A stretch of 64,000 nucleotides of DNA. Source: an uncultured Gammaproteobacteria bacterium. GTDB taxonomy: Bacteria > Patescibacteriota > Microgenomatia > Levybacterales > UBA12049. The stretch lies in NCBI GenBank assembly GCA_964525395.1, contig CAZGGU010000002.1:30263-94262 (forward strand), read 5' to 3'. Below are positions 9,997 through 62,415 of the stretch, one piece after another (within the stretch, counting starts at the first letter, position 1; each line of letters begins with the position of its first letter). A model generated the notes under the pieces. That model saw only the letters and a program-made list of their open reading frames with translations, was not told where the DNA came from and made no database searches. Position numbers and translations under genes: made by a program.

Positions 9997-11349
9997 ATGT
10001 TATCCACAATTGATCAACTTTGGGAAAAAGTACTTGCCGAAATACAAACTGAAGTTTCAGGTGCCAACTTTTTAACACTCTTCAAAAACACCACACTTTT
10101 GTCCCTGGAGGATAAAGTTGCCACTATTTCCGCTCCTAGCCCTATGATAATTGATTTACTTAATAAGCGTTTTTATGAAATTACCAAGAAAGTAATCGAC
10201 AAACACACAGGGGAGGATGTAAAGATTATTTTTGTTCCTAAAGCCATACAAAAACCCAACACTAATCCAGCTGACCATGGCCCGCTTTTTTCTGCCTTAC
10301 AACCAGTAGAAAAACCTATTGGCCACCTGCCAAGAGTGCGCCCTGATTTTATTTTTCAAAATTTCGCTGTTTCGGGATCCAACCAGCTGGCTTTCGTTTC
10401 TGCGAATACTGTGGCTAAAAAATTAGGAACCACATATAATCCTCTGTTTATTTATGGTCCCGTAGGGGTGGGCAAAACCCACTTAATGCATGCTGTGGCC
10501 AACGAAGCATATGCAGATGATCCTAATAGAAAGATTATGTATATAACTAGTGAGGAGTTTACCAATGAGGTAGTTGAGGCAATTAGAACCAACGACACAG
10601 CAAGAATGAAGCGTAGATTTAGGAACTTAGACCTTATCATGATTGATGATATTCAGTTCGTAGCCGGCAAGGAAAGAGTACAAGAAGAACTTTTCCACAC
10701 CTTCAATATCTTGGTGGATAACCAGGCCCAGATTATCCTAACCTCAGACCGCCCACCCTCAGAACTCCGCAAGGTAGAAAAAAGATTAGTATCTCGTTTT
10801 TCTGGAGGGCTCACGGTCGATATTGATTCTCCTGATTATGAGCTGCGTTGCGCCATCCTGCTTACAAAGGCTAAAAAATTTAACTTTGATTTAGATATAG
10901 AGACCGCCAAGATAATTGCATCTAAAACGGAAGATACGAGAGAACTTGAAGGACTGCTTCTTCGAGTTATGTCAGAAGCATCAAGCGAGGAGGGAAACCT
11001 TAGTCCGGATATGGCTAAAAAGGCGCTTTCAGCTAAAAGAGAAACTCCTCGTACTATGTTTCCTGAAGAGGTAATTAAAATCCTTTGCGAGTTCTACGGC
11101 GTAAAGCCTACGGCTCTCAAAGGCGACAAAAGAGACGCCAAACTAGTGCGCGCTAGGCAAACTTGCATGTTTGTTCTTAAAAAAGAGGGGGGACTTACTT
11201 ATGCTGAGATTGGAAACCTTCTGGGAGGCAGGGACCACACTACAGTAATGCATGGAGTGGAAAAGATTGAACTACTTTTGGCTAACGAAAAATATACAGA
11301 AGAAGCCTTGGGAATAAAAGAAGTCCACACTAGGGCTGTGGAAAACTAA
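9997..11349 (+). CDS. dnaA: chromosomal replication initiator protein DnaA
   Basis: Walker A GPVGVGKTHLMHAVANE, Walker B LIMIDDIQF, C-terminal DNA-binding helix-turn-helix; position next to dnaN and rpmH. Confidence 0.95.
   Translation: MLSTIDQLWEKVLAEIQTEVSGANFLTLFKNTTLLSLEDKVATISAPSPMIIDLLNKRFYEITKKVIDKHTGEDVKIIFVPKAIQKPNTNPADHGPLFSALQPVEKPIGHLPRVRPDFIFQNFAVSGSNQLAFVSANTVAKKLGTTYNPLFIYGPVGVGKTHLMHAVANEAYADDPNRKIMYITSEEFTNEVVEAIRTNDTARMKRRFRNLDLIMIDDIQFVAGKERVQEELFHTFNILVDNQAQIILTSDRPPSELRKVEKRLVSRFSGGLTVDIDSPDYELRCAILLTKAKKFNFDLDIETAKIIASKTEDTRELEGLLLRVMSEASSEEGNLSPDMAKKALSAKRETPRTMFPEEVIKILCEFYGVKPTALKGDKRDAKLVRARQTCMFVLKKEGGLTYAEIGNLLGGRDHTTVMHGVEKIELLLANEKYTEEALGIKEVHTRAVEN
10000..10008 (+). 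promoter_or_regulatory. perfect DnaA box TTATCCACA embedded in codons 2-4 of dnaA
   Basis: atgTTATCCACAattgat; exact 9-mer consensus. Confidence 0.55.
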
Positions 11350-20013: not shown

Positions 20014-20388
20014 TTATTGAGTGCCCCTGCCTGCTCTAAGGTTAGTCGCGTTGGTAGTTGCATTGCATGATGTAAAGCCAAATTTAGTAATGCAGCCAAC
20101 TCCTGTTATGCCAGCAATAATATTTAAAACAGCGAAGGACATAAGTATAACTATGAGACCGATTAGAGCCCAAGTGATAGTTTTTTTAGCCCCATCTGCT
20201 GCCTTAGGGTCTCCTCCAGAGGTGATATATTTTATTCCGCCAAGAATTACTAAGAAAAGTGCAATTATTCCTGCGAAGGTTAGAGCCCAAAAAATAAGGT
20301 TTTGAAATAGTACAGTTGCACAGTCTAAGGTAAGTATCTCCCCATACTTACTATCAAACGCACAAGCATTACCAGCTAATTTAAACAT
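20014..20388 (-). CDS. VirB2/TrbC-like pilin paralog 3
   Basis: Two hydrophobic helices flanking ILGGIKYITSGGDPKAADGAKKTITWALIGL; shared motif with the two upstream paralogs. Confidence 0.55.
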   Translation of the reverse strand: MFKLAGNACAFDSKYGEILTLDCATVLFQNLIFWALTFAGIIALFLVILGGIKYITSGGDPKAADGAKKTITWALIGLIVILMSFAVLNIIAGITGVGCITKFGFTSCNATTNATNLRAGRGTQ

Positions 20389-20431
20389 AAATTTAGCGTA
20401 ACAAAGAGGGGATTAAATCTCAAGCGGAAGT

Positions 20432-20851
20432 TTAACTGTTGGTGTAATTGGTAAGTGTGGGAAGAGTTAAATTGGTTAAGTTAATTCCGAAAAAGCCAAG
20501 TAAAATGTTCAAGATAAAGAATGACAAGAACATGATTGCGAGACCGATAAGAGCTGCTACAATCATTTGTCTTGATGCATCAACCTTCTTGGAGTCTCCG
20601 CCTGACATTATCCACTGAATTCCTCCAAAAATAAGGAAGCCGAGAGCAATAATTACGCCGATTACGAAAACTACTTGGATAAGGGTAGCCACTATTCCGC
20701 TGAAATCAGAGAGAGTTAATTTACAAAGTCCGCCAAATCCTCCACCAGGGCATACGCTAATTTTTTGTTGAGCATGTGCTTGAGGAGCGAGTGTTAAGAA
20801 TGGTACCGCTGAAAGTGAAATGGCAGTTATCTTTTTCATGTATATAAACAT
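20432..20851 (-). CDS. VirB2/TrbC-like pilin paralog 2 (with cleavable signal peptide)
   Basis: Signal peptide ...LTLAPQAHAQQ; FLIFGGIQWIMSGGDSKKVDASRQMIVAALIGLAIMFLSFFILN. Confidence 0.55.
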   Translation of the reverse strand: MFIYMKKITAISLSAVPFLTLAPQAHAQQKISVCPGGGFGGLCKLTLSDFSGIVATLIQVVFVIGVIIALGFLIFGGIQWIMSGGDSKKVDASRQMIVAALIGLAIMFLSFFILNILLGFFGINLTNLTLPTLTNYTNS

Positions 20852-20887
20852 CGTAGAAATATTTTAAATTCTTGTCAAGGGGTCAAT

Positions 20888-21223
20888 TTATGTGAGCTTT
20901 AAAAGATTGAGTCCGAAGAATCTGCCGACTACATTAATTATGAAAAATGCTAAGAAGGTGATGATAAGGCCAATCGCTGCGAAAGTAATTTTCTTTCTGG
21001 CCCCATCTACAGCTTTCGCATCTCCACCTGATGAAATCCACTGAATCCCGCCCCACATGATGAAAAATAAGGCTGCTAAGACTGCAGCAATAAACATGTA
21101 TGTAATTCCCAAGCGAATTACACCTTGAAGAGTGGGGAGACCAGACTCAGGCATGCCACCAATGGGTTTTAAATCAATTTGTTTGCCGTCACTGGGAACT
21201 TTAAGTGCTATTTCTCTAATCAT
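20888..21223 (-). CDS. VirB2/TrbC-like pilin paralog 1
   Basis: FFIMWGGIQWISSGGDAKAVDGARKKITFAAIGLIITFLAFFIIN; two TM hairpin. Confidence 0.55.
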   Translation of the reverse strand: MIREIALKVPSDGKQIDLKPIGGMPESGLPTLQGVIRLGITYMFIAAVLAALFFIMWGGIQWISSGGDAKAVDGARKKITFAAIGLIITFLAFFIINVVGRFFGLNLLKLT

Positions 21224-21225
21224 AT

Positions 21226-22470
21226 TTAACTAAATCCTGGAAGACCAAGGATATCAACTGTAATTAATCTAAGAATTGAGAGAGAAAAGATGATGAGTAA
21301 AAGTCCTGCAACGGCTGCTATTATGGCTTCTCTTGCTTCTGCTATTTTTTTAGGGTCCCCCTGTGAGGTCATTAGTTTAAATCCATTAGCGATAAAAAGA
21401 ATAATAAGAATTCCACCGGAAAGACTGAGGACGAGAATCAGCACGCTTCTAGCAAAGCCTTCAGGATTAATCCCAATCTTACCTATAGCTGTGTTGCAGG
21501 AGTTTGGAATTGCTTCGCCGGATTTAGGCTGACAGGGATTAGAAACTTTATTGCCCGGGTAGTCATAGCAGCCCAACTTTCCATCTGTGCCTGTGGTGCA
21601 GTATTTGCCACCGCATTCGGAATCATTATTGCAGCCTGAATGACCACCGTTTTGATCCACCGTGAAAGAGTCTGAGCAGTTTGTGTTATATTTGCCATCG
21701 ATCTGGACTTTATATGAGTTTTCTCCTATTAAATCATTTCCTACCGATACTCCCGCCGCTGCCTCGAGTTCACTTCTAGTTGGTGTAAATCTTTTTATCT
21801 CTGATCCATTTTCAGTTCCATTTATTTGAATAATTCTGACAAGCATTTTATCTTCAGGTTTTTCTGTAAACTCCTTTTTAAATGCAGCTTTTATTTTAAC
21901 TTCAGTTCCAGGCTTAAAATCAGTGTTTAGATATGTAATCGTGCAAAACTTATTGTCAACGCTAGTTTTTTGAATTTCCAAAGAGGCGCTTCCTAGGCTG
22001 CAGAGTAGAAAATCTCTGTTTTGACCCTGCTCTCCTTGGTGTCCGGTGGTTCTTAAATTGAATTCATATTTGCCAGGGTTGAAATCTGATGCATGATCCC
22101 CCTTTGTGTTTCCATTTCGATCAAATGGGGTATTAACAGTTGCGAGAGTATCTTCTTCGAATCGTTCCAGCGTCACTTTCGCAGGTACATTTGATTTATA
22201 AAATAAATCTCCAGTATCTTCTCCAATCGTACGAATGTCTCCTCCTTGTGGATTTATTGTCATTTCAATATTTGACGTAAGTGGAATTTGTTGACCCTTT
22301 ATTTTTAAGGTGATGCTATTTATTATATGGTCATCATCTCCTGCAGACTGTTTTTCTGAAATCTTCTGGATAGAACATTCACTTTTAGAATTTTGAGCAT
22401 AAGTAGGCTGAGTGTAAGTTGAAACAATCAGTATTAAAAAGAGTAGGACAGCAAAGATAATTCTTTTCAC
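21226..22470 (-). CDS. secreted Cys-rich extracellular domain fused to C-terminal pilin-like module (candidate minor pilin/tip adhesin)
   Basis: Signal peptide MKRIIFAVLLFLILIVSTYTQPTYA; Cys-rich GCNNDSECGGKYCTTGTDGKLGCYDYPGNKVSNPCQPK; C-terminal ILFIANGFKLMTSQGDPKKIAEAREAIIAAVAGLLLIIF shares the pilin paralog motif. Confidence 0.5.
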   Translation of the reverse strand: MKRIIFAVLLFLILIVSTYTQPTYAQNSKSECSIQKISEKQSAGDDDHIINSITLKIKGQQIPLTSNIEMTINPQGGDIRTIGEDTGDLFYKSNVPAKVTLERFEEDTLATVNTPFDRNGNTKGDHASDFNPGKYEFNLRTTGHQGEQGQNRDFLLCSLGSASLEIQKTSVDNKFCTITYLNTDFKPGTEVKIKAAFKKEFTEKPEDKMLVRIIQINGTENGSEIKRFTPTRSELEAAAGVSVGNDLIGENSYKVQIDGKYNTNCSDSFTVDQNGGHSGCNNDSECGGKYCTTGTDGKLGCYDYPGNKVSNPCQPKSGEAIPNSCNTAIGKIGINPEGFARSVLILVLSLSGGILIILFIANGFKLMTSQGDPKKIAEAREAIIAAVAGLLLIIFSLSILRLITVDILGLPGFS

Positions 22471-27053: not shown

Positions 27054-28625
27054 TTAATGGCCACTACCGTACGGTTTCGTAAATCCTGAATATATCATTG
27101 CCTTCGCAAGAATATTAGTTCCTTTTCCACCTCCATGTTGAGCATGTACGTTCCTTGCCCATGTGTCAGCTGCAGTCTTTGGAATTCCTAAGTATTTTCC
27201 GCCAACTCCGAGTGGTCCCATAATATTTCCAAAATTAACACCTGGAGCTTTGAACGCATCTTTAGTGGTGGTTAAGACATTTGGTAGCATTAAAATAAAT
27301 CCAAGACCAACTATTGCCCCGATTGCTTCGGTATTCGTTCCGCCAACCAGTGGGGGAACGAATCTCGTTACAGAGTCGCCATTAAAGGATTCAATGAAGT
27401 AGGAGGCAAGTAGGAAAAAAGCTACAGCTACTGGATAAACGGCTAAATTGGCTAAAAGATCTTTAATCCATACTCCTATCCCAGCTTTGGAGCCTGGCAT
27501 AACTCCAGCGATAATCCAAAATGGAGCAAAAATAATATCAAGAATTAAGTTTACATAGGCAACAACGAGTACGACCCAAACCCTAAATAAACAGACAACT
27601 ACCGCAATGGCAATAATTAAAAATGCTAGGATGTTTACAATCACACCAACTACGCCACCAATTATATTTCCCACAATATCTCCATTGCCGAAGTTAGAAG
27701 ATGGACCAGTAAAGACTGATTTGATAACTTCAGCAAAAGCAGATGATACTTGTCCTGCGATTCCCAGTATTCCGCCATTTTCACTAAAAGCGGCATTAGC
27801 TGCATTAAAAGGATTAGAGGCTCCCACGACTGCATTAGCAGCTTCAGGAGACACTACAGTTGAGGTAGCGCTTTGGATGACAAAAGCAAAAAGGTAGGTA
27901 GCTACGAACATGATATCAATGAGTAATCCGGCGATTGCAAATGAGAAGGTAACTGCAATTATTCCCATAATTATTTTGGGTAATTGATTTTGAATGGTCA
28001 TCACGTCATGTGCGTCAATATGGACCCTAAGCATTATTCCAAGACCGACAACGACGAAGGCGAGAATTAGAATTAAGTAGACAATATTTCTCATAGCCAC
28101 CCACAGTGGAAGAACGGGCTGGAGGCCGCAAAAGCCAACTCCTCTAGAAAGATTTTTACATGGATCAGTATTTTCTTGAGCATAAACTTTATCTCCTACG
28201 CCGAAATTACCTTTAAGATATGCAGTATATTGAGTAAAAGAGGCGGGCGGGGTAAAAGTCATATCAATTGCCTTTCCCATAACGGCGATTAAACCTCCCC
28301 CATTTTCTACATAACCGATTTTACCTGTTTCTGGATTTACACCTAGACACTGTGTGCCTGGTCTGGTTGGGTCCACTCCTGTGAGTTGGCAAGCCATAGC
28401 CGACATGGTTTCGATAAGTAGTATCTGAACTCCATTATGCATGTTCATTTCTACATTCGCTTCAGCATCTAAATTTTCTGTTTGTATATCAGCTTGAGGA
28501 GTAGTGGCCTCAATTTCATCAAGTGTTCCTGGAGTTTGCGCATAGGTTTTATGTGAAATTCCAGCGAAAAGAGCGAGGAATAAAAAGAAAGCAAGAAAAA
28601 ATAATTTCTGGGCAGAAATTCTCAT
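27054..28625 (-). CDS. VirB6/TrbL-like polytopic membrane protein
   Basis: Signal peptide then large periplasmic-type domain, then >=7 hydrophobic helices and Gly-rich C-tail; architecture of VirB6/TrbL/PrgH family; adjacent to T4SS genes. Confidence 0.5.
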   Translation of the reverse strand: MRISAQKLFFLAFFLFLALFAGISHKTYAQTPGTLDEIEATTPQADIQTENLDAEANVEMNMHNGVQILLIETMSAMACQLTGVDPTRPGTQCLGVNPETGKIGYVENGGGLIAVMGKAIDMTFTPPASFTQYTAYLKGNFGVGDKVYAQENTDPCKNLSRGVGFCGLQPVLPLWVAMRNIVYLILILAFVVVGLGIMLRVHIDAHDVMTIQNQLPKIIMGIIAVTFSFAIAGLLIDIMFVATYLFAFVIQSATSTVVSPEAANAVVGASNPFNAANAAFSENGGILGIAGQVSSAFAEVIKSVFTGPSSNFGNGDIVGNIIGGVVGVIVNILAFLIIAIAVVVCLFRVWVVLVVAYVNLILDIIFAPFWIIAGVMPGSKAGIGVWIKDLLANLAVYPVAVAFFLLASYFIESFNGDSVTRFVPPLVGGTNTEAIGAIVGLGFILMLPNVLTTTKDAFKAPGVNFGNIMGPLGVGGKYLGIPKTAADTWARNVHAQHGGGKGTNILAKAMIYSGFTKPYGSGH

Positions 28626-28694: not shown

Positions 28695-28781
28695 GGAGAG
28701 GTCGCATAGTGGTCTAGTGCGGATGTCTTGAAAACATCTGTGGGTGCAAGCCTACCGCGAGTTCGAATCTCGCTCTCTCCG
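28695..28781 (+). tRNA. tRNA-Ser (anticodon UGA), type II long variable arm
   Basis: Acceptor GGAGAGG/TCTCTCC, D-arm GCA-TAGTGGTCTAG-TGC, anticodon stem GATGT/ACATC with loop CTTGAAA, T-arm GCGAG-TTCGAAT-CTCGC. Confidence 0.85.
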
Positions 28782-28815
28782 CATATAGCGAGATGAGAAG
28801 TTTATGGTGAGCTTG

Positions 28816-28843
28816 TCGAATCCAAATCTCGCTCTCTCCGCAC
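28816..28843 (+). repeat. direct repeat of the tRNA-Ser 3' end (tcgaatc..atctcgctctctccgca), att-like remnant
   Basis: 17-nt perfect repeat of 28767-28783 at 28827-28843 plus upstream tcgaatc; also hairpin atctcgct/agcgagat at 28767-28790. Confidence 0.6.
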
Positions 28844-36140: not shown

Positions 36141-36170
36141 AAAAATCCGCAGTTACGCGGATTTTATTTG
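36141..36170. terminator. bidirectional rho-independent terminator (serves comFC on + and putative tmRNA on -)
   Basis: aaaaatccgcagttacgcggatttttatttg: 6-bp GC stem atccgc/gcggat, 6-nt loop, flanked by A-run and T-run. Confidence 0.6.
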
Positions 36171-36578
36171 TGGAGATGTCGAGGAGTGACCTCGAGTGCA
36201 AGAAGTTTATTTTTAAACGTCTACAAGCTTAGCTAAATGTTTTTTTGATCACTCTATTCTTTGAAATTTAGCATCCATAAATAGAGTCAAGGTTATAAAT
36301 ACAATAAGGACCTAACCGGCTTCCTTACAGTTTTTCTCAGCTGTTTTTATGCTCAAATTGCCTCACTGAGAAAAGGACAAAGCGAACATCCTAAATCTTA
36401 AACAACAGCAAAAGCTGGTGCTCCGAATTGAGGAACAGAAAGGTTAGGGATTAACCCCTTTACCTTAGCTGTTAAAATGCCTTTATTAGCATTTATTTTT
36501 TGATTATGTTTAACGACTACTATCAAAGTCGGCTTGCAATTTATTAATGTACTAACTTGTCGATGCAATGCATCCCCA
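36171..36578 (-). ncRNA. ssrA: candidate tmRNA (ssrA) downstream of smpB
   Basis: Minus-strand 5' end GGGGAUGCAUUGCAUCGAC..UGCAAGCCGAC resembles tmRNA 5' consensus GGGGnUG..GGAUUCGAC..GCnnGCCGAG; 3' end CGACAUCUCCA can pair with the 5' GGGGAUG as an acceptor stem; internal frame ..PNLSVPQFGAPAFAVV-UAA could be the tag ORF; 480-nt gene-free gap. Confidence 0.4.
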
Positions 36579-37052: not shown

Positions 37053-37183
37053 CCTTCGACAGGCTCAGGACAAGTAGGTGGAGTCTGCATTGCTATGATA
37101 CTAGAGAAGAAGGGAATTGTAAATTTATTCACGCACCTCTGACAAGTGATGGCTTTTTGATTGGAATAAAAAAGGTGTAGAAT

Positions 37184-51776: not shown

Positions 51777-51943
51777 AGCTAGTAATTATTAAGTTTTTGT
51801 ATAAATATTTTATTCGCCCCTTTCTAATTTGACTCAAATTTTTTACCCGATTTTTCACCAGTATTTTTCTAAATTTTGGTCATTGTGGAAAACGAGGCTA
51901 GTTTTTAAGTTGAGGTGATTTGATACAATTGTTAGTAGTTGAC

Positions 51944-51991
51944 ACCCCTGATTTAGTGCCATATGATCATTCATGCCACTAGATTTAGTGG
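51944..51991 (+). promoter_or_regulatory. pair of NrdR-box-like palindromes spaced 32 bp upstream of nrdR-nrdJ
   Basis: ccactaGATTtagtgg at 51976-51991 (6-bp arms cACTA/TAGTg) and related acccctgATTTAGTGc at 51944-51959; consensus acaCwAtATaTwGtgt. Confidence 0.45.
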
Positions 51992-52016: not shown

Positions 52017-52466
52017 ATGAAATGTCCATATTGCGGATCTAGAGATACAGAAGTAGTCGAAACTAGAGACTCTGAAGATTTAGAAACTATTAGAAGAAGA
52101 CGAAGCTGTACGAAATGCGAAAAAAGATTTACTACTTATGAAAGAGTAGAGAATGTTAATCTCGTTGTCATTAAAAAAGATGGTAGGCGAGAGCAATTTA
52201 GTCGCGATAAATTAAAGAATGGAATTTTAAGATCCTGCGAAAAAACTACAGTAACAGTTGACGACGTGGAGAGAATAGTAATAGAAGTTGAAAGAGAATT
52301 AAGGGGTGGAGATTCGGTTGAAGTAGAAAGCAAGAAGATTGGTCAGTTGGTGGCAACAAGACTTAAGAAGCTAGACAAAATAGCATATATACGTTTTTCT
52401 AGTGTGTTTAAAAGATTTGTTGATATCGAAGATTTCGAAAAAGAAGTAAAAAAACTTATTAATTAA
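52017..52466 (+). CDS. nrdR: transcriptional repressor NrdR
   Basis: N-terminal zinc ribbon MKCPYCGS...CTKCEKRFTTYE and ATP-cone. Confidence 0.9.
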   Translation: MKCPYCGSRDTEVVETRDSEDLETIRRRRSCTKCEKRFTTYERVENVNLVVIKKDGRREQFSRDKLKNGILRSCEKTTVTVDDVERIVIEVERELRGGDSVEVESKKIGQLVATRLKKLDKIAYIRFSSVFKRFVDIEDFEKEVKKLIN

Positions 52467-52470
52467 AATT

Positions 52471-54867
52471 ATGAAACTTGACGGTGTACGAGAAAAAGTA
52501 TTTTTAGACAGATATTCTTTAAAAGATAAAGAAGGTAATGCCTTAGAAAAAACTCCAGATGAAATGTGGAGAAGAGTGGCTAAGGGTATTGCAAAACAGG
52601 AAAAAAAAGCTAATCAGAAAGTTTGGGAAAAGAAATTTTTCGATGTCATGGATGACTTCAAATTCGTTCCAGGAGGAAGAATTCTCTCAGGTGCTGGCAC
52701 AGAGTTCCAGGTAACTTACTTTAACTGCTTCGTGATTCCATCCCCAAAAGACTCTCGTGAAGGAATAATTGACTCCCTCAAACAGCTTGTTGAGATTCAA
52801 TCTCGCTCAGGCGGGGTCGGATTGAACTTGTCATCTCTTAGGCCACGTGGAGCTAGAGTTAAAAAGGTTAATGGTTTTTCTTCAGGTCCTGTAACTTGGG
52901 CTGGACTCTTTTCATATGCAACTCATGATGTGGTTCAGCAGGGCGGAAGTAGAAGAGGGGCAACAATGCTTATGCTTCATGATTGGCATCCTGACGTTGA
53001 AGAATTTATTACTGTTAAAGAAGATTTGAGCAAGATTAACGGCGCCAATCTTTCAGTTTGCGTATCAGACGCATTTATGGAAGCAGTTAAAGCTGATGCA
53101 GACTGGAATTTGGAATATCCAGATCTTGATGACCCGCACTATGATAAGGATTGGGATGGAGATCTTATTGGATGGAAAAAAGCAGGAAGAAAAACTAAAG
53201 TTTATAAAACAGTTAAAGCTAAAGAGCTTTGGGATCTTATCTGTACTGCAGCTTGGAGATCAGCTGAGCCAGGTCTTCATTTCTTAGAAAGATCAAATAA
53301 AAGAAGTAACACATGGTATTTTGAAAAGCTTATCGCGACTAATCCTTGCGGAGAGCAGCCACTTGGAGCATGGGCGGTTTGTAACTTAGGTGCTATGAAT
53401 TTAGCAGCTTACGTTAAAAATGAGAAGTTTGATTATGATAATTTCGCAAAAGACGTAAAAGTTGCCATGAGATTCTTAGATAACGTAATTGATGATACTT
53501 ATTATTTCTTCAAAGAAAATGAAGAGGTAGCTAAGGACATAAGACGCACTGGTCTTGGAATTCTAGGGCTAGCTGATGCACTTATTAAGATGAAATTAAG
53601 ATACGGTGCACCTGAATCAGAGGAGACAATAAAAAAAATCTTTGAGACTCTTAGAAACAGCGCATATGATGCTTCAGCAGATATTGCGAAAGAAAAAGGC
53701 GCATTCCCTAAGTTTAAGAAAGAGAAATATTTGAAAGGCTATCACATTGAGAGACTTCCTAAGGAAATTAGAGCAAAGATTGCTAAGAATGGAATCAGAA
53801 ATGCAGTACTTTTGACAATCGCTCCAACAGGAACAACATCGCTTATATCAGGTGTTTCTTCTGGAGTAGAGCCAGTTTATGAGTTTGAATTTATCCGCCG
53901 AGATAGACTTGGAGAGCACAAGATGTTCCATCCATTGTTCGAAGAGTGGCAGAAAGAAAATCCAGGAGCAGAAAAGCCACACTATTTCGCTTCTGCTAAT
54001 GATTTAACTCCAGAAGAGCATGTAAAGGTTCAAGCAATTGCTCAGGAATATATCGATTCTTCTATTTCTAAGACCGTTAATGCGCCTAATGCTCACACAG
54101 TTGAAGATGTAAAAAATCTTTATATGATGGCATATGACCAAGGCCTCAAGGGCGTTACTTATATGAGAGACGGGTCTCGTGAAGGAGTGCTTTCAAGAGT
54201 GGAAGAAAAGAAGTCTGAGACAGTAGTTGTTCCTCAAGTTCATGCTCCTGCAGAATATGTACGTGCGCCTCGCCCAATGATGGTAGAAGGTGTTACATAT
54301 AAAACTCAAACCCCAGTAGGAGACACTTATATTACGCTTAATCATGATCAGAATGGCGAGCCGTTTGAAGTATTTATTACGATTGGAAAACCAGGTACAG
54401 ACATCGCAGCTATGGCAGATGCTCTCGGCAGAATGGTGTCTTTGAATCTTCGTCTCGCAGGCAACCTGCCGCCGCGCGAGCGCATCAGGCAGGTTATTTC
54501 CCAGCTCTCAGGTATTGGGGGGGCAAGAAGTGTAGGATTTGGAGAAAATAGAGTTAGATCTCTTCCTGATGCAATCGCTATAGTTCTGGCTAAGCAGTAT
54601 GCATTTAAAGTAAACGGAGTAGTAGAGGATAAGCTCGCACCTAACACAACTCCAGTAGTTCCCGTCGCTGACGCACCTGCAGCAGCAACAGAATCTGTCC
54701 CTGAAAATATTACTGTACTTCAGCAGCTCCCACTCCAGGAGGGAATTACTATGGCGCCTCATGTTAAAACCAACAACTTCGATATTTGTCCTGAATGCGG
54801 AACTTCAGCTTTCGTATTCGAAGAAGGATGCGGCAAATGTTATGCCTGCGGTCACTCCGAATGCTAA
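52471..54867 (+). CDS. nrdJ: adenosylcobalamin-dependent ribonucleotide reductase (class II, NrdJ)
   Basis: ATNPCGEQPL active-site motif, RNR alpha fold length, C-terminal CPECG...CGKCYACGHSEC zinc ribbon; 4 nt after nrdR. Confidence 0.85.
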   Translation: MKLDGVREKVFLDRYSLKDKEGNALEKTPDEMWRRVAKGIAKQEKKANQKVWEKKFFDVMDDFKFVPGGRILSGAGTEFQVTYFNCFVIPSPKDSREGIIDSLKQLVEIQSRSGGVGLNLSSLRPRGARVKKVNGFSSGPVTWAGLFSYATHDVVQQGGSRRGATMLMLHDWHPDVEEFITVKEDLSKINGANLSVCVSDAFMEAVKADADWNLEYPDLDDPHYDKDWDGDLIGWKKAGRKTKVYKTVKAKELWDLICTAAWRSAEPGLHFLERSNKRSNTWYFEKLIATNPCGEQPLGAWAVCNLGAMNLAAYVKNEKFDYDNFAKDVKVAMRFLDNVIDDTYYFFKENEEVAKDIRRTGLGILGLADALIKMKLRYGAPESEETIKKIFETLRNSAYDASADIAKEKGAFPKFKKEKYLKGYHIERLPKEIRAKIAKNGIRNAVLLTIAPTGTTSLISGVSSGVEPVYEFEFIRRDRLGEHKMFHPLFEEWQKENPGAEKPHYFASANDLTPEEHVKVQAIAQEYIDSSISKTVNAPNAHTVEDVKNLYMMAYDQGLKGVTYMRDGSREGVLSRVEEKKSETVVVPQVHAPAEYVRAPRPMMVEGVTYKTQTPVGDTYITLNHDQNGEPFEVFITIGKPGTDIAAMADALGRMVSLNLRLAGNLPPRERIRQVISQLSGIGGARSVGFGENRVRSLPDAIAIVLAKQYAFKVNGVVEDKLAPNTTPVVPVADAPAAATESVPENITVLQQLPLQEGITMAPHVKTNNFDICPECGTSAFVFEEGCGKCYACGHSEC

Positions 54868-54904
54868 TTGCCTCTAGCGTTTAGGTTGGATTTCAATTAT
54901 ATTA

Positions 54905-55040
54905 ATCATCCAGTAAGGAATTGGGTAAGTGAGGCGTAAATCCTCCGCAGTGCCGCTACCGTAAAGTCGGAAAACCACCTTATGTAGTTCTCGAGCAAGA
55001 TTGTCGTCACACAAACTTCTCGTCTAGAGGAGTTTTTTTT
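54905..55040 (+). ncRNA. candidate cobalamin (B12) riboswitch
   Basis: AGUAAGGAAUUGGGUAAGUGAGGCGUAAAUCCUCCGCAGUGCCGCUACCGUAAAGUCGGAAAACCACC resembles the core AAGGGAA..GGUGAAAAUCC..GCCACUGUAA..B12-box; followed by run of 8 T and AGGAG SD; located between nrdJ and PduO-type ATR. Confidence 0.45.
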
Positions 55041-55081
55041 ATGGATTCGACAAGCTCACCATAATATTGAGTAGGGTCGAA

Positions 55082-55642
55082 ATGATTATGAGCAAAATTT
55101 ATACAAGAACAGGAGATACGGGTCAAACTTCACTTTTTGATGGCAAAAGAGTTCTCAAGTCAGACCCCAAGGTGGAAACTTATGGCACGATTGATGAATT
55201 AAATTCTACGATTGGTTTTGCCTCTACTTTTATTAAAGACAAACTTATCCTTAAAGAACTTGAAGAAATTCAGAATGATCTTTTGGAGGTTGGCTCCTCA
55301 CTTGCTGTTACCGACACGCTACCTTTAGATCAGTTAGAGCCTCGACCCGAGGAATTTGAAAAGCTGATTGATGAGTTAACTGTTAAGATGCCTCTTCTCA
55401 CGCAGTTTATTTTACCTAGTGGGGGAAAGGGTGGAGCAGCACTGCATGTAGCTAGAACTGTGGCTAGAAGAGCTGAAAGAAAGGTGATTGATCTTGCTCA
55501 ATCAGAAGAAGTGGACCCAATACTGATTAAATATCTTAATCGTTTGTCAGATTTACTCTTCACTTTTGCCCGCTACGTAAATTATAAAGAGAAATCCCTC
55601 GGCAAGCTCGGGACAAGAGAAAAAGTTTGGAAGAAAAAATGA
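55082..55642 (+). CDS. ATP:cob(I)alamin adenosyltransferase, PduO type
   Basis: MIMSKIYTRTGDTGQTSLFDGKRVLKSDPKVETYGTIDELNS matches PduO/MMAB N-terminal signature; listed ORF starts at TTG 55067, ATG at 55082 more likely. Confidence 0.75.
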   Translation: MIMSKIYTRTGDTGQTSLFDGKRVLKSDPKVETYGTIDELNSTIGFASTFIKDKLILKELEEIQNDLLEVGSSLAVTDTLPLDQLEPRPEEFEKLIDELTVKMPLLTQFILPSGGKGGAALHVARTVARRAERKVIDLAQSEEVDPILIKYLNRLSDLLFTFARYVNYKEKSLGKLGTREKVWKKK

Positions 55643-56757
55643 TAGAAACACAGGCACGAACATATACTCCAGAATTTGATCAAGAAGCATACGCTAGACT
55701 TTGGGCGTTACCAGTCTCAGAAAGAGTAGTCGAAAGAGAAAAACTAGATAAGTTAACCGGAAAAAACTTGGAAACAATGCTGGCTGAGCGCTTTAATGTT
55801 TTAGTCAGCAAATATAATTACGATATGATTGACGGTCAGCTTTGGGGAGAAGGGATGAATGAGCCGGCAATTGATTCATTTCGCCGAGGAGTTGTGTGGA
55901 GAAGAACTCATGGAAACCCTGATGATTGGCCCAGAGAAAAAGCAGAAATAGTAGGCTTTGAAATAATCGAGCAAATGCTTAGAGAAGAAAAGGATGTACT
56001 CTTAATTTCTCCTCCAGGGGGAAGTTATAAGCACAATTTTTATGATATTTTTAAGTGGAAAGATGGAAAAATTGAGGCTAGACGTTATTCATCTGCGCTA
56101 GAGATTGAGGATTACCAGAAATTGTTAGGAGTTGAACATAGTACTGCTGAAGAGTTTTTGGCAAACCCAATTGATATTTCTCAGACATTTATTTCAGCTG
56201 ATGAAGCACATAAATATTTACATAGAGATCACGAAACAACGAGTCTTGAGGTTTATGAGAATTACATTTTACCAGGAACTAGGGAGGCTATGTATGAAGT
56301 TCTTCAGGCATATTATGATGGAGATGAAGAGAGGCAGGAATTTTGGCTTAATGCATATGTAAATGCAGCAGATGAGATAAATGATTGGGCTCAGAATTTA
56401 ATTGATCAAGAGTTTAATGTCCCTGTGACTCCAATTGAATTTAGTGCATTTGATTATGCGAGACTTGCTAGCCAGGAGGTTAGAGAGGTTTCTACTGGTT
56501 GCGGATTGTCTGGCGGATTTAAATTAGGTGGCGATAGGGGTCCAGCGAATCCTTGGACTGTAAGTGAGTTTGGTAAAAAAGCTGAGGCATGCGGAACTTG
56601 TAATCAGTCGACTGAAGATGATCATTATCATTGTCCGGGTTGTGGCGGTTCATACGAGAGTGAAAGAAGCAAGCCTGCAGGTTCTAGGACCAAAGTCTGC
56701 GCTAAGGAGGTTACAGGGGATGTGGGAGGAATTTGTGGCTTCAAATTCGCTTGTTAA
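55627..56757 (+). CDS. hypothetical protein with C-terminal Cys-rich zinc-ribbon-like cluster
   Basis: CGTCNQSTEDDHYHCPGCGG...VCAKEV...ICGFKFAC; no other recognisable motif. Confidence 0.3.
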   Translation: MEEKMIETQARTYTPEFDQEAYARLWALPVSERVVEREKLDKLTGKNLETMLAERFNVLVSKYNYDMIDGQLWGEGMNEPAIDSFRRGVVWRRTHGNPDDWPREKAEIVGFEIIEQMLREEKDVLLISPPGGSYKHNFYDIFKWKDGKIEARRYSSALEIEDYQKLLGVEHSTAEEFLANPIDISQTFISADEAHKYLHRDHETTSLEVYENYILPGTREAMYEVLQAYYDGDEERQEFWLNAYVNAADEINDWAQNLIDQEFNVPVTPIEFSAFDYARLASQEVREVSTGCGLSGGFKLGGDRGPANPWTVSEFGKKAEACGTCNQSTEDDHYHCPGCGGSYESERSKPAGSRTKVCAKEVTGDVGGICGFKFAC

Positions 56758-57211: not shown

Positions 57212-59569
57212 ATGGAAATTAATTTTGCATCATTTATTGTAGCTTTTATGGCTGTGCTTTTGGTCATGACAGGTGCTGGCGCACTAGTGGCTGTACTTGG
57301 TTATTATTCTTTTATCGCATATAAATTCCGCAATCGTAAAAAAGAAGCTCTCAAGAGAACACTTTTGCAAGTTGCACTTCCTAGGGACAATGAAGTAAAA
57401 ATTGATGCAGCAGAGCAGTTATTTGCTTCCTTTGGCTCTGTTTATAAAGGTGGTCGAACAGCCTTTCTTAAACCTCAGCCTATTTTTTCTTTTGAAATCG
57501 TAGGAATGCCAGGGGATATTCGGTTTTATGTTTCTGCTCCAAATAAATATCGAGATTTTGTGGAAAAACAGATAAACGGTGCCTATCCCGAGGCTGAAAT
57601 TGAAGAGGTTTCTGAACACCATTCGCCTAAGGAGGGATATGTAATTGGAAATGACTATAATATTTTCTCTGAAACTGGAAAAGTAGCTTTTACCTCACTT
57701 CATCTTAAAAAGCATAGTTATGAGCCTATTAAAACTTATAAAGATTATCCCGTGGACCCACTCTCTTCAATTACTTCTACTTTAGCGAAGATGACAGAAG
57801 GAGAGGGCGCAGCAATTCAGATTTGTATTTCGCCTGCTGATCCTAAATGGAAGAAAATTGGTAAAGCCTGGTTATCTAATACTAAGAAACATGAATCAAA
57901 TCCTGAAACTGCTAAATATTCACATGATGCGAAAGAGCTTGAGGGGGTGGAGACAAAGATCGGTAAACCAGGATTCGATTCGATCATTCGCATAGTAGTT
58001 TCATCTTCAACGCATGATTCAGCCGAAGCGCATCTTTCTAATATTAAAAACGCATTTAGCCAGTATTCGGGTGCTAATTCTTTTAGTAGTTCAAAACATC
58101 ATAACAAAGAATTTATGGATGAATTTATTTACCGTTATATGCCTAAGCATGGGCATATATCGATTCTTAATAATGAAGAGCTAGCTACTCTTTTTCATTT
58201 CCCAAATAAAGGCGTAGCAACACCTCATATTTTTTGGGTTGCTTCAAAGCGTGCTCCAGTGGCAGCCAATGTGCCTACATCAGGATTGTATCTAGGAAAA
58301 AGTTCATATCGTGGTTTGTCTCGAGACGTTTATATCGGAGACGATGATAGAAGAAGGCATATGTATATAATCGGAAAAACAGGTACAGGAAAAACAGAGT
58401 TTCTTAAGCAGATGATTATGCAGGACATTAAGGGTGGGAAGGGCTTAGCAGTAATCGATCCTCACGGAGATTTAATTGAAGATATTCTTACGATGGTTCC
58501 GCCGGAAAGAAGCGAGGATGTAATTCTTTTCGATCCTTCAGATTTGGCTCGTCCAATGGGACTTAATATGCTTGATGCTCATTCAGAAGAAGAAAAGCAC
58601 TACATAGTGTCTTCTGTGATTGGGCTTATGTACAAGCTCTTTGATCCTAATAAAACAGGTATTATCGGTCCTAGATTTGAGCATGCTGTTCGAAACGCGA
58701 TGCTTACAGTTATGTATAAGCCTGGAGCGACTTTTATTGAAGTTGTGCGTATTTTGACCGATGCGAAGTTCGTTCAAGAATTATTGCCCCTCGTTCAGGA
58801 TCCTATTGTTAAGCGTTATTGGACTGATCAAATTGCTCAAACTTCCGACTTTCATAAATCAGAAGTTCTTGACTATATCGTTTCCAAATTCGGTCGTTTC
58901 GTTACGAATAAAATGATCAGAAATATCATTGGTCAGTCTGATTCAGCTTATGATTTTCGAGACGTAATGGATAATGGCAAAATTTTGCTCGTTAATTTGT
59001 CTAAAGGTAAGATTGGAGAAGAGAACTCTAATTTCTTAGGTTTAATCATTGTTCCTAGAATTTTAGTAGCTGCAATGAGTAGACAGAATATTCCGCAGGA
59101 ACAGCGTCGAGACTTCTTCCTTTATGTGGACGAGTTTCAGAATTTCGCAACACCTGATTTTGCCCAGATTCTTTCTGAGGCACGTAAATATCGTTTAAAC
59201 TTGATCGTAGCGAATCAGTTTATCGGGCAGATGGAAGAAGAAGTTAAGAATGCTATTTTTGGAAATGTAGGCACTTTGGCTTCATTCCGCGTGGGCGTGA
59301 CGGATGCTAATTATCTTCAGCATGAATTCCAGCCAACATTTACTGAGGCAGATCTTATAAATATCGACCGTTTTAACTGTTATATGAGAACACTAGTTAA
59401 TGGAGAACCTATCTTGCCATTCTCACTAGACACTACAAAGGATATCGTGAAAGAAAAAGCTATGATGAATCCTAGAGTCGCAGAGCTAATTAAGCAATTA
59501 TCACGACTTAAATATGGGAAAGATGTGAATACAATTGAGCAGGTTATAGGGGAACGCGCAAGGCTTTAA
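57212..59569 (+). CDS. virD4: type IV coupling protein (VirD4/TraG/TcpA-like ATPase)
   Basis: N-terminal TM; Walker A IIGKTGTGKTEFL, Walker B LYVDEFQNF, ANQFIGQ sensor region; 785 aa. Confidence 0.7.
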   Translation: MEINFASFIVAFMAVLLVMTGAGALVAVLGYYSFIAYKFRNRKKEALKRTLLQVALPRDNEVKIDAAEQLFASFGSVYKGGRTAFLKPQPIFSFEIVGMPGDIRFYVSAPNKYRDFVEKQINGAYPEAEIEEVSEHHSPKEGYVIGNDYNIFSETGKVAFTSLHLKKHSYEPIKTYKDYPVDPLSSITSTLAKMTEGEGAAIQICISPADPKWKKIGKAWLSNTKKHESNPETAKYSHDAKELEGVETKIGKPGFDSIIRIVVSSSTHDSAEAHLSNIKNAFSQYSGANSFSSSKHHNKEFMDEFIYRYMPKHGHISILNNEELATLFHFPNKGVATPHIFWVASKRAPVAANVPTSGLYLGKSSYRGLSRDVYIGDDDRRRHMYIIGKTGTGKTEFLKQMIMQDIKGGKGLAVIDPHGDLIEDILTMVPPERSEDVILFDPSDLARPMGLNMLDAHSEEEKHYIVSSVIGLMYKLFDPNKTGIIGPRFEHAVRNAMLTVMYKPGATFIEVVRILTDAKFVQELLPLVQDPIVKRYWTDQIAQTSDFHKSEVLDYIVSKFGRFVTNKMIRNIIGQSDSAYDFRDVMDNGKILLVNLSKGKIGEENSNFLGLIIVPRILVAAMSRQNIPQEQRRDFFLYVDEFQNFATPDFAQILSEARKYRLNLIVANQFIGQMEEEVKNAIFGNVGTLASFRVGVTDANYLQHEFQPTFTEADLINIDRFNCYMRTLVNGEPILPFSLDTTKDIVKEKAMMNPRVAELIKQLSRLKYGKDVNTIEQVIGERARL

Positions 59570-61377: not shown

Positions 61378-62415
61378 CTAATTCTCTACTTCTTTAGAGT
61401 AAGGAGCAGATCTTGTCAGAGAAGGATTGTTTGGCAGATTGATGAATGGACAGATCCGATTCTTCTGCGCCATAACGAACTGACCGGCAAGAATGATTGC
61501 GGGGGTGCCGTGTTCAATCTTGGAAGCCGGAAGACTGCTCTGTGTCTGGTATCGTTTGCGCAAAATGCGCGAGTGGTTCCAATCCTTGATCCTATCAAAA
61601 AAGAATATCGTCAAAACAATTAGGAAACTAATTCCAAAAACAAAAGCTACAACTGCTGTCAGGATAAGAATCCAACTCAGCGTACGTTCGACTCCTACTA
61701 GAAAGAAGGAGAAAACGATTGTGCCTGCTGCAGCCACGCTCCAAGGATAGATCACCTTAAATCGACCTTGAAACCAAAACCAACCTACGATATTTCGACC
61801 GTATCTTAGGTTTGTCCATTCGTTGAATTTGAAAATAGGCCAGCAAGGAGCCAAAAACAGAACGGCTAGCAGGTAAAACAATTTGTCAAAGAATGAAATT
61901 ACTGTTCTTACCCAACGCTTGTGCTTATTGTTTTCCATATATGAAATTAGTAGAAAGGATGAAATTGCTATCATGCCGATTGTGGTAAAGAATATCACCA
62001 TGAAAATTGTAAAAAAGAACTTATCAGGAGCGATCAGATAAACGACCATACTACTCAGGGTGATGATGACAGAGAGTGCGATCATCCAGAGTCGGACTGC
62101 TCTATAAAGACGAGCTTTGAAAAACCAAAAAATTGGTGCCCAAATCAGTACAACACGCATGTAGTGGCAGAGATTTTCTGCATAGCCTTGTCGGACTCTA
62201 CCGCCTTGGTTCATCCACCAGAGATAGACGCGATAGTGCCAGGAATTCTGGTTTACCGACATTGACTTGCGGTGTCGATCCACAGGATTTCCCGTGAATG
62301 ACATGTTTTTCGCACTCCTTTCTCTGTAGATATAGATTACTTCGCAAAATTTAAACGTGCATATAACCTCCAGTAGTTGGCCGCATTTGGCCAGGCTGTG
62401 ATTAAGTTTGAGCAT
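61378..62415 (-). CDS. polytopic membrane protein of unknown function (start probably internal)
   Basis: >=7 hydrophobic segments; overlapping + strand ORF 61303..61623 judged spurious. Confidence 0.35.
   Translation of the reverse strand: MLKLNHSLAKCGQLLEVICTFKFCEVIYIYRERSAKNMSFTGNPVDRHRKSMSVNQNSWHYRVYLWWMNQGGRVRQGYAENLCHYMRVVLIWAPIFWFFKARLYRAVRLWMIALSVIITLSSMVVYLIAPDKFFFTIFMVIFFTTIGMIAISSFLLISYMENNKHKRWVRTVISFFDKLFYLLAVLFLAPCWPIFKFNEWTNLRYGRNIVGWFWFQGRFKVIYPWSVAAAGTIVFSFFLVGVERTLSWILILTAVVAFVFGISFLIVLTIFFFDRIKDWNHSRILRKRYQTQSSLPASKIEHGTPAIILAGQFVMAQKNRICPFINLPNNPSLTRSAPYSKEVEN

Follow-up and report, generated by a model that had tools for sequence, protein, structure and literature searches.

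A class-II cobalamin riboswitch between nrdJ and pduO in Levybacteria-like bacteria and its predicted control of B12 salvage genes

The 214-nt spacer between nrdJ and pduO (open reading frames of 798 and 184 aa) in the 64,000-nt stretch of DNA analysed here, hereafter the window, encodes an RNA that sequence comparison confirms as a true cobalamin riboswitch of class II, one more ordinary representative of a known family. The same RNA follows nrdJ, at the same position, in 16 distinct relatives. In the preferred reading, to which a probability of roughly 0.6 is given, it would be a B12-OFF switch acting on both the termination of transcription and the initiation of translation of the downstream B12 salvage genes. 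Its targets would be pduO and the 376-aa ORF that overlaps it in the window, and also DUF4430 and DUF6580 in those relatives that have a longer operon.

The aptamer and its neighbouring genes

The whole 64 kb window was scanned with cmscan against all 4227 Rfam families. The sole riboswitch match was to RF01689 (AdoCbl-II, clan CL00101), with 47.9 bits (gathering score 36.5) and E = 1.6e-8 for the whole window or 9e-11 for the spacer alone; the other matches were one tmRNA and seven tRNAs. The alignment spans model positions 1-81 of 81, which is full model coverage, and places all the helices: the four-way junction P3-P6 with its conserved core, the L4 T-loop and the P6 hairpin (Table 1). The aptamer is already detectable by the existing Rfam model. 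The original prediction had put a cobalamin riboswitch between a B12-dependent nrdJ and a PduO-type adenosyltransferase on the strength of a conserved-core sequence. That sequence is present in the spacer, at 54916-54981, and the covariance-model match above the curated threshold, together with the constant position in the 16 relatives, bears the prediction out. Of the clan, for which the scan displays the top-scoring member only, the best match is RF01689 and neither of the models named for the search, RF00174 and RF01482; the RNA is a class-II aptamer with a shortened J1/3, not the classical RF00174.

Table 1. Features of the window in and around the nrdJ-pduO spacer
Feature	Position	Strand	Basis or remark
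Promoter-like TTGACA-17-TATGAT	51939-51967	+	upstream of nrdR
NrdR-box-like repeats, two	about 51944-51959 and 51976-51991	+	each contains GATTTAGTG
nrdR	52017-52466	+	Pfam Zn_ribbon_NrdR and ATP-cone
nrdJ, AdoCbl-dependent class II ribonucleotide reductase	52471-54867	+	TIGR02504 NrdJ_Z, 595.4 bits (cutoff 399.95)
Cobalamin class-II aptamer	54913-54983	+	RF01689, full-length alignment; P1 and P4 covary in relatives
P1	54913-54918 / 54978-54983	+	cmscan alignment
J1/3, AAU only	54919-54921	+	6-nt deletion relative to the RF01689 model
P3, UGG / CCA		+	cmscan alignment
P4/L4 T-loop hairpin	54931-54945	+	cmscan alignment
P5 with L5 UGCCG	L5 54951-54955	+	cmscan alignment
P6 hairpin	54959-54970	+	cmscan alignment
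B12-box-like J6/3 (AAAA) and P3	54971-54977	+	cmscan alignment
J1/13 linker GUAGU, 5 nt	54984-54988	+	4-7 nt in 16/17 leaders; L095 value unreliable
Candidate antiterminator 5' strand UUCUCGAG	54988-54995	+	overlaps P13 5' strand and loop
P13-like hairpin UCU-CGAGCA-AGA; loop L13 54992-54997	54989-55000	+	in all 17 leaders
Terminator-like, SD-sequestering hairpin: AAACUUCUC / loop GUCUA / GAGGAGUUU	55013-55035	+	terminator scan
Shine-Dalgarno GAGGAG, riboswitch-controlled RBS	55027-55032	+	relatives' SD-U6-8-AUG opens the first downstream gene
U8 tract, putative terminator tail and SD-AUG spacer	55033-55040	+	U6-8 run there in all 17 leaders
7-codon uORF MDSTSSP*	55041-55064	+	opened by the riboswitch-controlled AUG (55041-55043)
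46-nt palindromic insert, arms TTCGAC.../...GTCGAA (55046-55081), TTATG direct-repeat flanks	55044-55089	+	absent from L083 and L081
pduO-type ATP:cob(I)alamin adenosyltransferase	55088-55642 (alternative start 55082)	+	TIGR00636, 175.4 bits (cutoff 108.45)
376-aa conserved protein, function uncharacterised	55627-56757	+	overlaps pduO stop codon by 16 nt

Since the whole aptamer is only 71 nt long, there is no room for the peripheral elements of class I, and both a P2 arm and a long P6 extension are missing. Class-IIa aptamers have a bulged J1/3, the last five nucleotides of which form a T-loop that contacts J6/3 and governs selectivity. In the AdoCbl-binding class-IIb aptamers J1/3 is short, either mismatched or paired, and P6 bears a short hairpin; J1/3 is absent altogether from some aptamers of class II (PMC6158498, PMC7367189). 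Assignment to Cbl-IIa (MeCbl/HyCbl-selective) was rejected, since the J1/3 of the window consists of AAU alone and that of most relatives of 2-4 nt. Class IIb is what the aptamer resembles, to judge from its short J1/3 and its P6 hairpin, selectivity itself not being readable from sequence. AdoCbl would make physiological sense as the effector and agrees with the short J1/3, the form of the ligand being a prediction. As class-II aptamers range from MeCbl- to AdoCbl-selective (PMC6158498), non-adenosylated cobalamin may also act as the repressor of an adenosyltransferase gene.

Leaders of relatives, labelled L081-L112, were collected from contigs encoding close homologues of the adenosyltransferase (ATR) and by a metagenome scan with the invariant 28-nt core. 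With that of the window, 17 distinct leaders were obtained, the other 16 being from Levybacteria-like relatives. RF01689 scored at or above the gathering score in seven relatives' leaders (L081, L082, L083, L085, L092/93, L107), and in L112 it reached 35.2 bits (gathering score 36.5). L086, L108 and L110 have insertions of 27-55 nt in P4 and give no Rfam match, with the core kept; five more leaders (L095-L105) were found by an exact match to the 28-nt core, not by the Rfam scan. The window aptamer scores higher than that of any scanned relative. The 28-nt core is invariant and the flanks and loops diverge. The invariance leaves P3, P5 and P6 uninformative on covariation. Covariation is seen in the outer pair of P1 (A-U in 8 leaders, G-C in 3) and in a pair of P4 (A-U in 11, G-C in 2).

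The surrounding genes are also constant: PGK, a cytidylate-kinase-like gene, DUF5667, nrdR, nrdJ, the spacer, optionally DUF4430 and DUF6580, then pduO, an uncharacterised protein, a small ORF and a TraG/VirD4-like gene. The riboswitch is followed by DUF4430-DUF6580-pduO in 7/16 relatives (L082, L085, L092, L105, L107, L110, L112; for L105 the operon type was judged by the first gene's N-terminus alone) and directly by pduO in the other nine, as in the window. The uncharacterised protein after pduO is roughly 335-440 aa in relatives and absent from L085 and L092; in the window, its 16-nt overlap with pduO makes the 376-aa ORF probably a part of the same transcription unit. The nrdJ product carries the RNR barrel and TSCPD domains of Pfam and scores higher on TIGR02504 than on the class I model TIGR02506 (359.5 bits). 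The ATR matches PF01923 with 188.7 bits (E 1.2e-55), and the closest of its named homologues belong to Candidatus Levybacteria, which is a CPR lineage. With Pfam and TIGR matches above cutoff, the identities proposed at the outset for NrdR, the class II RNR and the PduO ATR all hold.

The NrdR boxes of the original prediction were also recovered, as two copies of GATTTAGTG at 51950 and 51982, 32 bp apart, in repeats that overlap the promoter-like site; the second copy sits within the palindrome CCACTAGATTTAGTGG. In the consensus attributed to Rodionov and Gelfand (2005), NrdR boxes are palindromes of 16 bp that stand in tandem at the promoter with a spacing of about 31-32 bp. The arrangement found here fits such boxes, as judged against this consensus and not by a statistical model. 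A "complete regulatory circuit" had been proposed as well, and here the claim went too far: no B12 transporter was found within the 64 kb window, and nothing evident ties the riboswitch to the regulation of nrdJ itself. DUF4430 and DUF6580 are absent from the window operon and from the whole 64 kb, and the promoter search gave no candidate in the 45 nt that separate nrdJ from the aptamer.

Expression platform and proposed mechanism

The platform consists of three helices, the P13-like hairpin, a terminator-like hairpin and a long-range helix. The P13-like stem is 3-4 bp across leaders and covaries (C-G in 8 and U-A in 5 at one pair; U-A in 10, A-U in 2 and G-U in 1 at another). The terminator-like hairpin has a 9-bp stem and a 5-nt loop followed by U8 (-10.1 kcal/mol), and the stem-loop with its U run was picked up by a scan for intrinsic (Rho-independent) terminators, termination itself being predicted. 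The 3' arm of this hairpin is GAGGAG-UUU and includes the Shine-Dalgarno (SD) sequence. The GAGGAG is a real SD because the AUG after the U run starts the first gene in 12 relatives, where the order SD-U6-8-AUG is found (L081, L083, L085, L092, L097, L101, L103, L105, L107, L108, L110, L112). The helix that buries the SD has 95.7% of its cells paired across 13 leaders, and its variation is one-sided only.

In the long-range helix, UUCYCGRG, made up of the 5' strand and loop of P13, pairs with CUCGRGAA at the end of the 5' arm and in the loop of the terminator hairpin. This candidate antiterminator is 4-10 bp in the first 12 relatives analysed and 7-10 bp in 9/12 of them, with duplex energies of -10.8 to -18.3 kcal/mol, and it is mutually exclusive with both the P13 hairpin and the terminator/sequestor helix. 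Pairs were counted in register-anchored segments of 13 leaders. Platform cells were paired at 88.6%, against 33.7-57.1% with slid partners; nine platform pairs change on both sides, five antiterminator pairs having changes on both sides, and the covariation score was reached by 0/500 shuffles. Two partners covary with the Y of CYCGRG, one in P13 (C-G 8, U-A 5) and one in the antiterminator (C-G 7, U-A 4); such dual covariation is, at the level of the alignment, the signature of two mutually exclusive helices. When P13 was enforced in folding, the predicted sequestration of the SD rose from 0.66 or less to about 1.0 (0.79-1.00) in 10/16 relatives. Five relatives without the insert described below are, like the window, terminator-dominant in equilibrium folding. 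Between L4 and the loop of the long-range helix no leader-specific complementarity was found, the loop compared being L4, not L5.

The loops L5 and L13 are complementary. L5 UGCCG can pair with L13 CGAGCA through U-A, G-C, C-G, a bulged A, C-G and G-C (5 bp), a pairing that includes CCG:CGG-type pairs and an unpaired purine. L5 also resembles the published consensus UCCCG (env8 numbering). The variants of L13 among the leaders (CGGGAUCA, CGGGACCA, CGAGACCA and CGAGCUU) all keep the complementarity to L5, with the terminal CG...CA retained except in L112, which has CGAGCU(U). L112 alone departs from the other leaders in L5 as well (AGCCG), and this U to A change is matched by A to U in L13, converting U-A to A-U; L5 is otherwise invariant in the sample, 12 loci of which were found with a probe spanning L5. 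The compensatory change is one event, supportive but not conclusive for the predicted L5-L13 kissing loop.

In the proposed mechanism, bound cobalamin would stabilise the kissing loop between L5 and the loop of P13, which begins 5 nt after P1. Locking of P13 would keep its 5' strand from pairing with the downstream CUUCUCG segment, which would then pair with GAGGAG-UUU to form the hairpin followed by U8. This hairpin would act as an intrinsic terminator and would also bury the SD. Without ligand, P13 (3 bp, about 0 kcal/mol) is predicted to be too weak to persist; the antiterminator/antisequestor helix would form, transcription would read through and the SD would be exposed. Dual control of termination and translation is proposed because the 3' arm of the terminator is also the SD. 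Repression is the favoured sign of regulation: the arrangement corresponds to that of a repressing riboswitch whose mechanism has been dissected (PMC10327014), and uptake-type genes, which B12 riboswitches classically repress, head the controlled operon in 7/16 relatives.

Peculiarities of the window and competing readings

In the window the antiterminator has changed from CUCGAGAA to CUCGUCUA, leaving 4 bp (-0.7 kcal/mol). Even the best alternative register, at -6.2 kcal/mol, makes it the weakest of the 13 leaders measured (the others reaching -10.8 to -18.3 kcal/mol). The SD is predicted to be 99% sequestered even without P13, and in the minimum free energy fold of the full leader the terminator is kept and the aptamer disrupted. 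The window platform may be partly eroded. Since the SD is sequestered regardless of P13 and the MFE fold keeps the terminator, switching in the window may be kinetic, or impaired.

The second peculiarity is the palindromic insert, which is found in 3/17 leaders (window, L096, L082). Its fold is modestly stable (-10.9 kcal/mol, z -1.1). The left 23 nt of the insert recur at 28802-28824 on the minus strand. The insert parts the controlled SD and AUG from the pduO ATG, so that the controlled AUG lies 47 nt upstream, where it opens a uORF that ends within the insert hairpin loop, its stop codon 18-24 nt before the pduO start. The pduO gene itself starts just 3' of the hairpin, without a good SD. 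Equivalent uORFs are 7 codons in L096 and 18 codons in L082. The U8 tract and AGGAG named by the original prediction are both present, in the order GAGGAG, U8, AUG and not with the U tract first; and the AGGAG, proposed as the SD of the adenosyltransferase gene, is the riboswitch-controlled SD to judge from the relatives, but in the window it serves the uORF. The exposed SD and AUG would start the uORF here, and translation of pduO could follow by coupling or reinitiation. With the insert hairpin only modestly stable, coupling through uORF translation is a weakly supported suggestion.

These features could mean that the aptamer is intact but the switch impaired in the window. The hairpin and U8 would then be a largely constitutive terminator of nrdR-nrdJ and SD sequestor, and pduO would have a low expression that does not depend on B12, arising by read-through or from sequence made by the insert, the hairpin loop of which holds a -10-like CATAAT (TATAAT in L096). 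The weak antiterminator, the probability of 0.99 for a sequestered SD in unconstrained folding, the displacement of the controlled SD from the pduO ATG and the absence of the relatives' uptake genes all point this way. Against it, the window aptamer outscores those of all the relatives; P13, L13 and the complementarity to L5 are intact; the five insert-free relatives are equally terminator-dominant, and the thermodynamic proxy may miss kinetic control; and L096, with the same insert, has a strong 10-bp antiterminator. Impaired switching is considered a serious alternative, though an unlikely one on this evidence.

The dual control assumed in the preferred reading could also be translational only, the hairpin doing nothing but sequester the SD and the U tract being a mere SD-AUG spacer. 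This is how the characterised env8-type class-II switches work (PMC5028336). The sequestor helix of L082, L085, L086, L092 and L103 contains a large internal hairpin, which is unusual for intrinsic terminators, and intrinsic termination is not known to have been characterised in CPR bacteria. A pure run of U6-8 is nevertheless kept in 17/17 leaders, though any A/U-rich spacer would serve, and the stem with its U tract satisfies the terminator scan, which makes purely translational control rather unlikely.

The sign of regulation would be reversed if the long-range helix UUCYCGRG:CUCGRGAA were itself the functional P13. Stabilised by ligand, it would free the SD, and cobalamin would induce its own adenosylation. 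An activating corrinoid riboswitch in which P13 is the antiterminator exists (A. halodurans cobT; PMC10327014), and substrate induction of an adenosyltransferase would be sensible if the aptamer senses non-adenosylated cobalamin. Such an ON switch is very improbable here, as i) the L5-complementary CGAGCA is the loop of the small hairpin, and the long-range helix uses its first four bases for pairing; ii) the J1/13 of 4-7 nt and the hairpin of 12-14 nt match the repressing env8 layout; and iii) uptake-type genes come first in the operon in 7/16 relatives. The reading of the covariance-model match as a chance resemblance, with no structured RNA, is effectively refuted by the E-value against 4227 models, the conserved position in 16 relatives with the core invariant amid diverging flanks and loops, and the covarying stems, even though single-sequence folding of the leader is no more stable than that of shuffles (z -1.2 and -0.8).

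B12 salvage and comparison with known systems

The B12-OFF switch of the preferred reading would have a wider operon as its target in seven relatives, where DUF4430-DUF6580-pduO is likely a B12 uptake and activation operon. DUF4430 is known solely as the C-terminal domain of transcobalamin (PMC4350170). DUF6580, a membrane protein in the relatives' operons, gave only a sub-threshold match to PF12822 (ECF S-component/BtuM-like; E 0.033, 14.6 bits, cutoff 30.7) and no match among PDB sequences, and no literature on it was found. A B12 function is probable for both by the logic of the regulon. At somewhat less than even odds, these genes may make up a previously undescribed B12 salvage module of Levybacteria-like CPR bacteria. 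It would consist of a DUF4430 binder, transcobalamin-like and either secreted or anchored; a DUF6580 permease that resembles S-components faintly and stands alone, no ECF energising module lying nearby; PduO; and a protein of ~380 aa that is restricted to the clade, has a C-terminal Cys4 zinc ribbon, invariant His/Glu/Arg residues and a new fold, and may process cobalamin for NrdJ as a reductase, dealkylase or chaperone. In this tentative scheme the aptamer would belong to a J1/3-less class-II lineage that senses AdoCbl via the combined terminator/SD sequestor.

The current understanding of cobalamin riboswitches is not overturned by this RNA. The main value lies in the annotation and in a lead that would link DUF4430, DUF6580 and the 376-aa family, itself uncharacterised and also implicated, to B12 salvage in CPR bacteria. 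These ultra-small bacteria appear to keep a dedicated RNA cofactor sensor beside the class II RNR, the only evident B12 enzyme at the locus. The 17 leaders form a natural series, with short J1/3, a P13 of 3-4 bp, a bistable platform and one natural kissing-loop compensation, that could be used for testing how a class-II aptamer is coupled to a terminator.

In B. subtilis the last gene of the yvr operon, yvqK, encodes a PduO-type adenosyltransferase. The functional content of that operon is the same as that of DUF4430-DUF6580-pduO in the relatives. The yvrC-yvrB-yvrA-yvqK genes, a cobalamin uptake operon, are controlled by a cobalamin riboswitch (PMC7367189). The aptamer there is a class I/II hybrid, however, and the operon encodes an ABC transporter where the relatives have a transcobalamin-like domain protein and the DUF6580 membrane protein; from the window the uptake genes have been lost, unless they were never present.

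The env8HyCbl and AdoCbl-variant class-IIa aptamers (RF01689; PDB 4FRN) share with the window aptamer the covariance model, the P3-P6 four-way junction and the lack of a P2 arm or long P6 extension. The J1/13 of env8 is 7 nt (PMC5028336) compared with 5 nt here, both leading to a P13 hairpin of 12-14 nt whose loop is able, by prediction in the window, to form a kissing helix with L5 that is broken by an unpaired purine. With a J1/3 of 2-4 nt, the selectivity-setting J1/3 T-loop of class IIa is missing here, and the RBS lies in a separate downstream terminator-like hairpin, not in L13; L13 is CGAGCA here and a purine-rich RBS loop in env8.

The short or absent J1/3 and the small P6 hairpin are shared with the class-IIb aptamers of E. 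faecalis eut and M. tuberculosis ppe2 (PMC7367189, PMC6158498), although the best Rfam match here is RF01689. In M. tuberculosis ppe2, a B12 switch of class-IIb-like type governs a uORF that must be translated if the downstream gene is to be translated too (PMC11260477). The window likewise has a uORF under putative riboswitch control, and coupling may operate in a similar way. The uORF here, unlike that of ppe2, derives from the 46-nt insert, and its stop codon precedes the pduO start instead of overlapping it.

A parallel in logic is the switch of P. megaterium metE, in which a kissing-loop-stabilised P13 permits the terminator and part of P13 otherwise pairs with the 5' arm of the terminator; its CCG:CGG-type kissing pairs were defined by mutagenesis (PMC10327014). 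The same terminator/antiterminator logic and the same type of kissing pairs are predicted here. The metE aptamer belongs to class I, not class II, and the terminator 3' arm here is also the SD, which predicts dual transcriptional and translational control. The antiterminator strand also differs, being the P13 5' strand and loop here and the 3' side of P13 in metE.

A palindromic element at the controlled start codon

The 46-nt palindromic element between the riboswitch-controlled AUG and the pduO start has the arms TTCGACARGCTCA ... TGAGCTTGTCGAA, with TTATG repeats on both flanks. In 3 of the 17 leaders (the window and 16 distinct relatives) it sits exactly at the controlled start codon. Its left 23 nt, TGGATTCGACAAGCTCACCATAA, recur as an exact second copy at 28.8 kb of the window, and a 13-mer of the element occurs three times in the window, where 0.1 occurrences would be expected. 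One of the copies in the relative L082 adjoins a tRNA. The element has the appearance of a MITE-like or tRNA-associated repeat. At window 28695-28781 lies a tRNA whose 3' end, AATCTCGCTCTCTCCGCA, is present again about 45 nt downstream (region 28764-28842, + strand), and an arm of the element is placed between the two copies; the arrangement is like the scar that integration into a tRNA gene leaves behind.

Variation around nrdJ and within the aptamer

Some relatives carry a small DUF6941 gene between nrdR and nrdJ, which the window lacks. In the relative L108 (1368-3754), nrdJ is broken into five ORFs by frameshifts or assembly errors; the riboswitch and pduO are still intact. Directly 3' of nrdJ, ahead of the aptamer, a long inverted repeat with the conserved loop UUUGGAA(A/G)U is seen in several relatives; the corresponding stretch of the window (54868-54912) contains a degenerate form, GGUUGGAUUUC. 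This repeat could serve as the nrdJ terminator, as a promoter region for the transcript that carries the riboswitch, or as a site for protein binding. Structured insertions of 27-55 nt are found within aptamer stem P4 in the spacers of three relatives, L086 (5803-5857), L108 and L110. The binding core is identical in all three, yet because of the insertions their Rfam scores fall below threshold; riboswitches with such P4 insertions would escape Rfam-based annotation.

Other genes of the window

The window also contains a tmRNA, dnaA, a T4SS-pilin cluster and a TraG/VirD4-like gene, as is typical for the type IV system of Patescibacteria. Two multi-pass membrane proteins are the only unassigned transporter candidates within the window.

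Coordinates of repeats and genes in the window and in relatives' loci (L numbers)
Feature	Location	Strand	Remarks
Palindromic element	window 55044-55089
Exact copy, left 23 nt	window 28802-28824	-
Element sequence	window 37055-37067	+
Element sequence	L082 5110-5122, 10558-10570
Element sequence	L096 6725-6737
DUF6941 gene	L081 3004-3405; L107 119-520; L108 998-1363; L110 61-459
Post-nrdJ inverted-repeat region	L081 5787-5860; L086 5742-5790; L107 2922-2990; L108 3755-3820; L110 2898-2965
tmRNA	window 36168-36577	-	82 bits; long insertion relative to model
dnaA	window 9997-11349	+
Three T4SS-pilin-domain genes	window 20014-22470	-	cluster
TraG/VirD4-like coupling protein	window 57212-59569	+
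Multi-pass membrane protein	window 27054-28625	-	~9 predicted TM segments; no Pfam match
Multi-pass membrane protein	window 61378-62415	-	~6 predicted TM segments; no Pfam match
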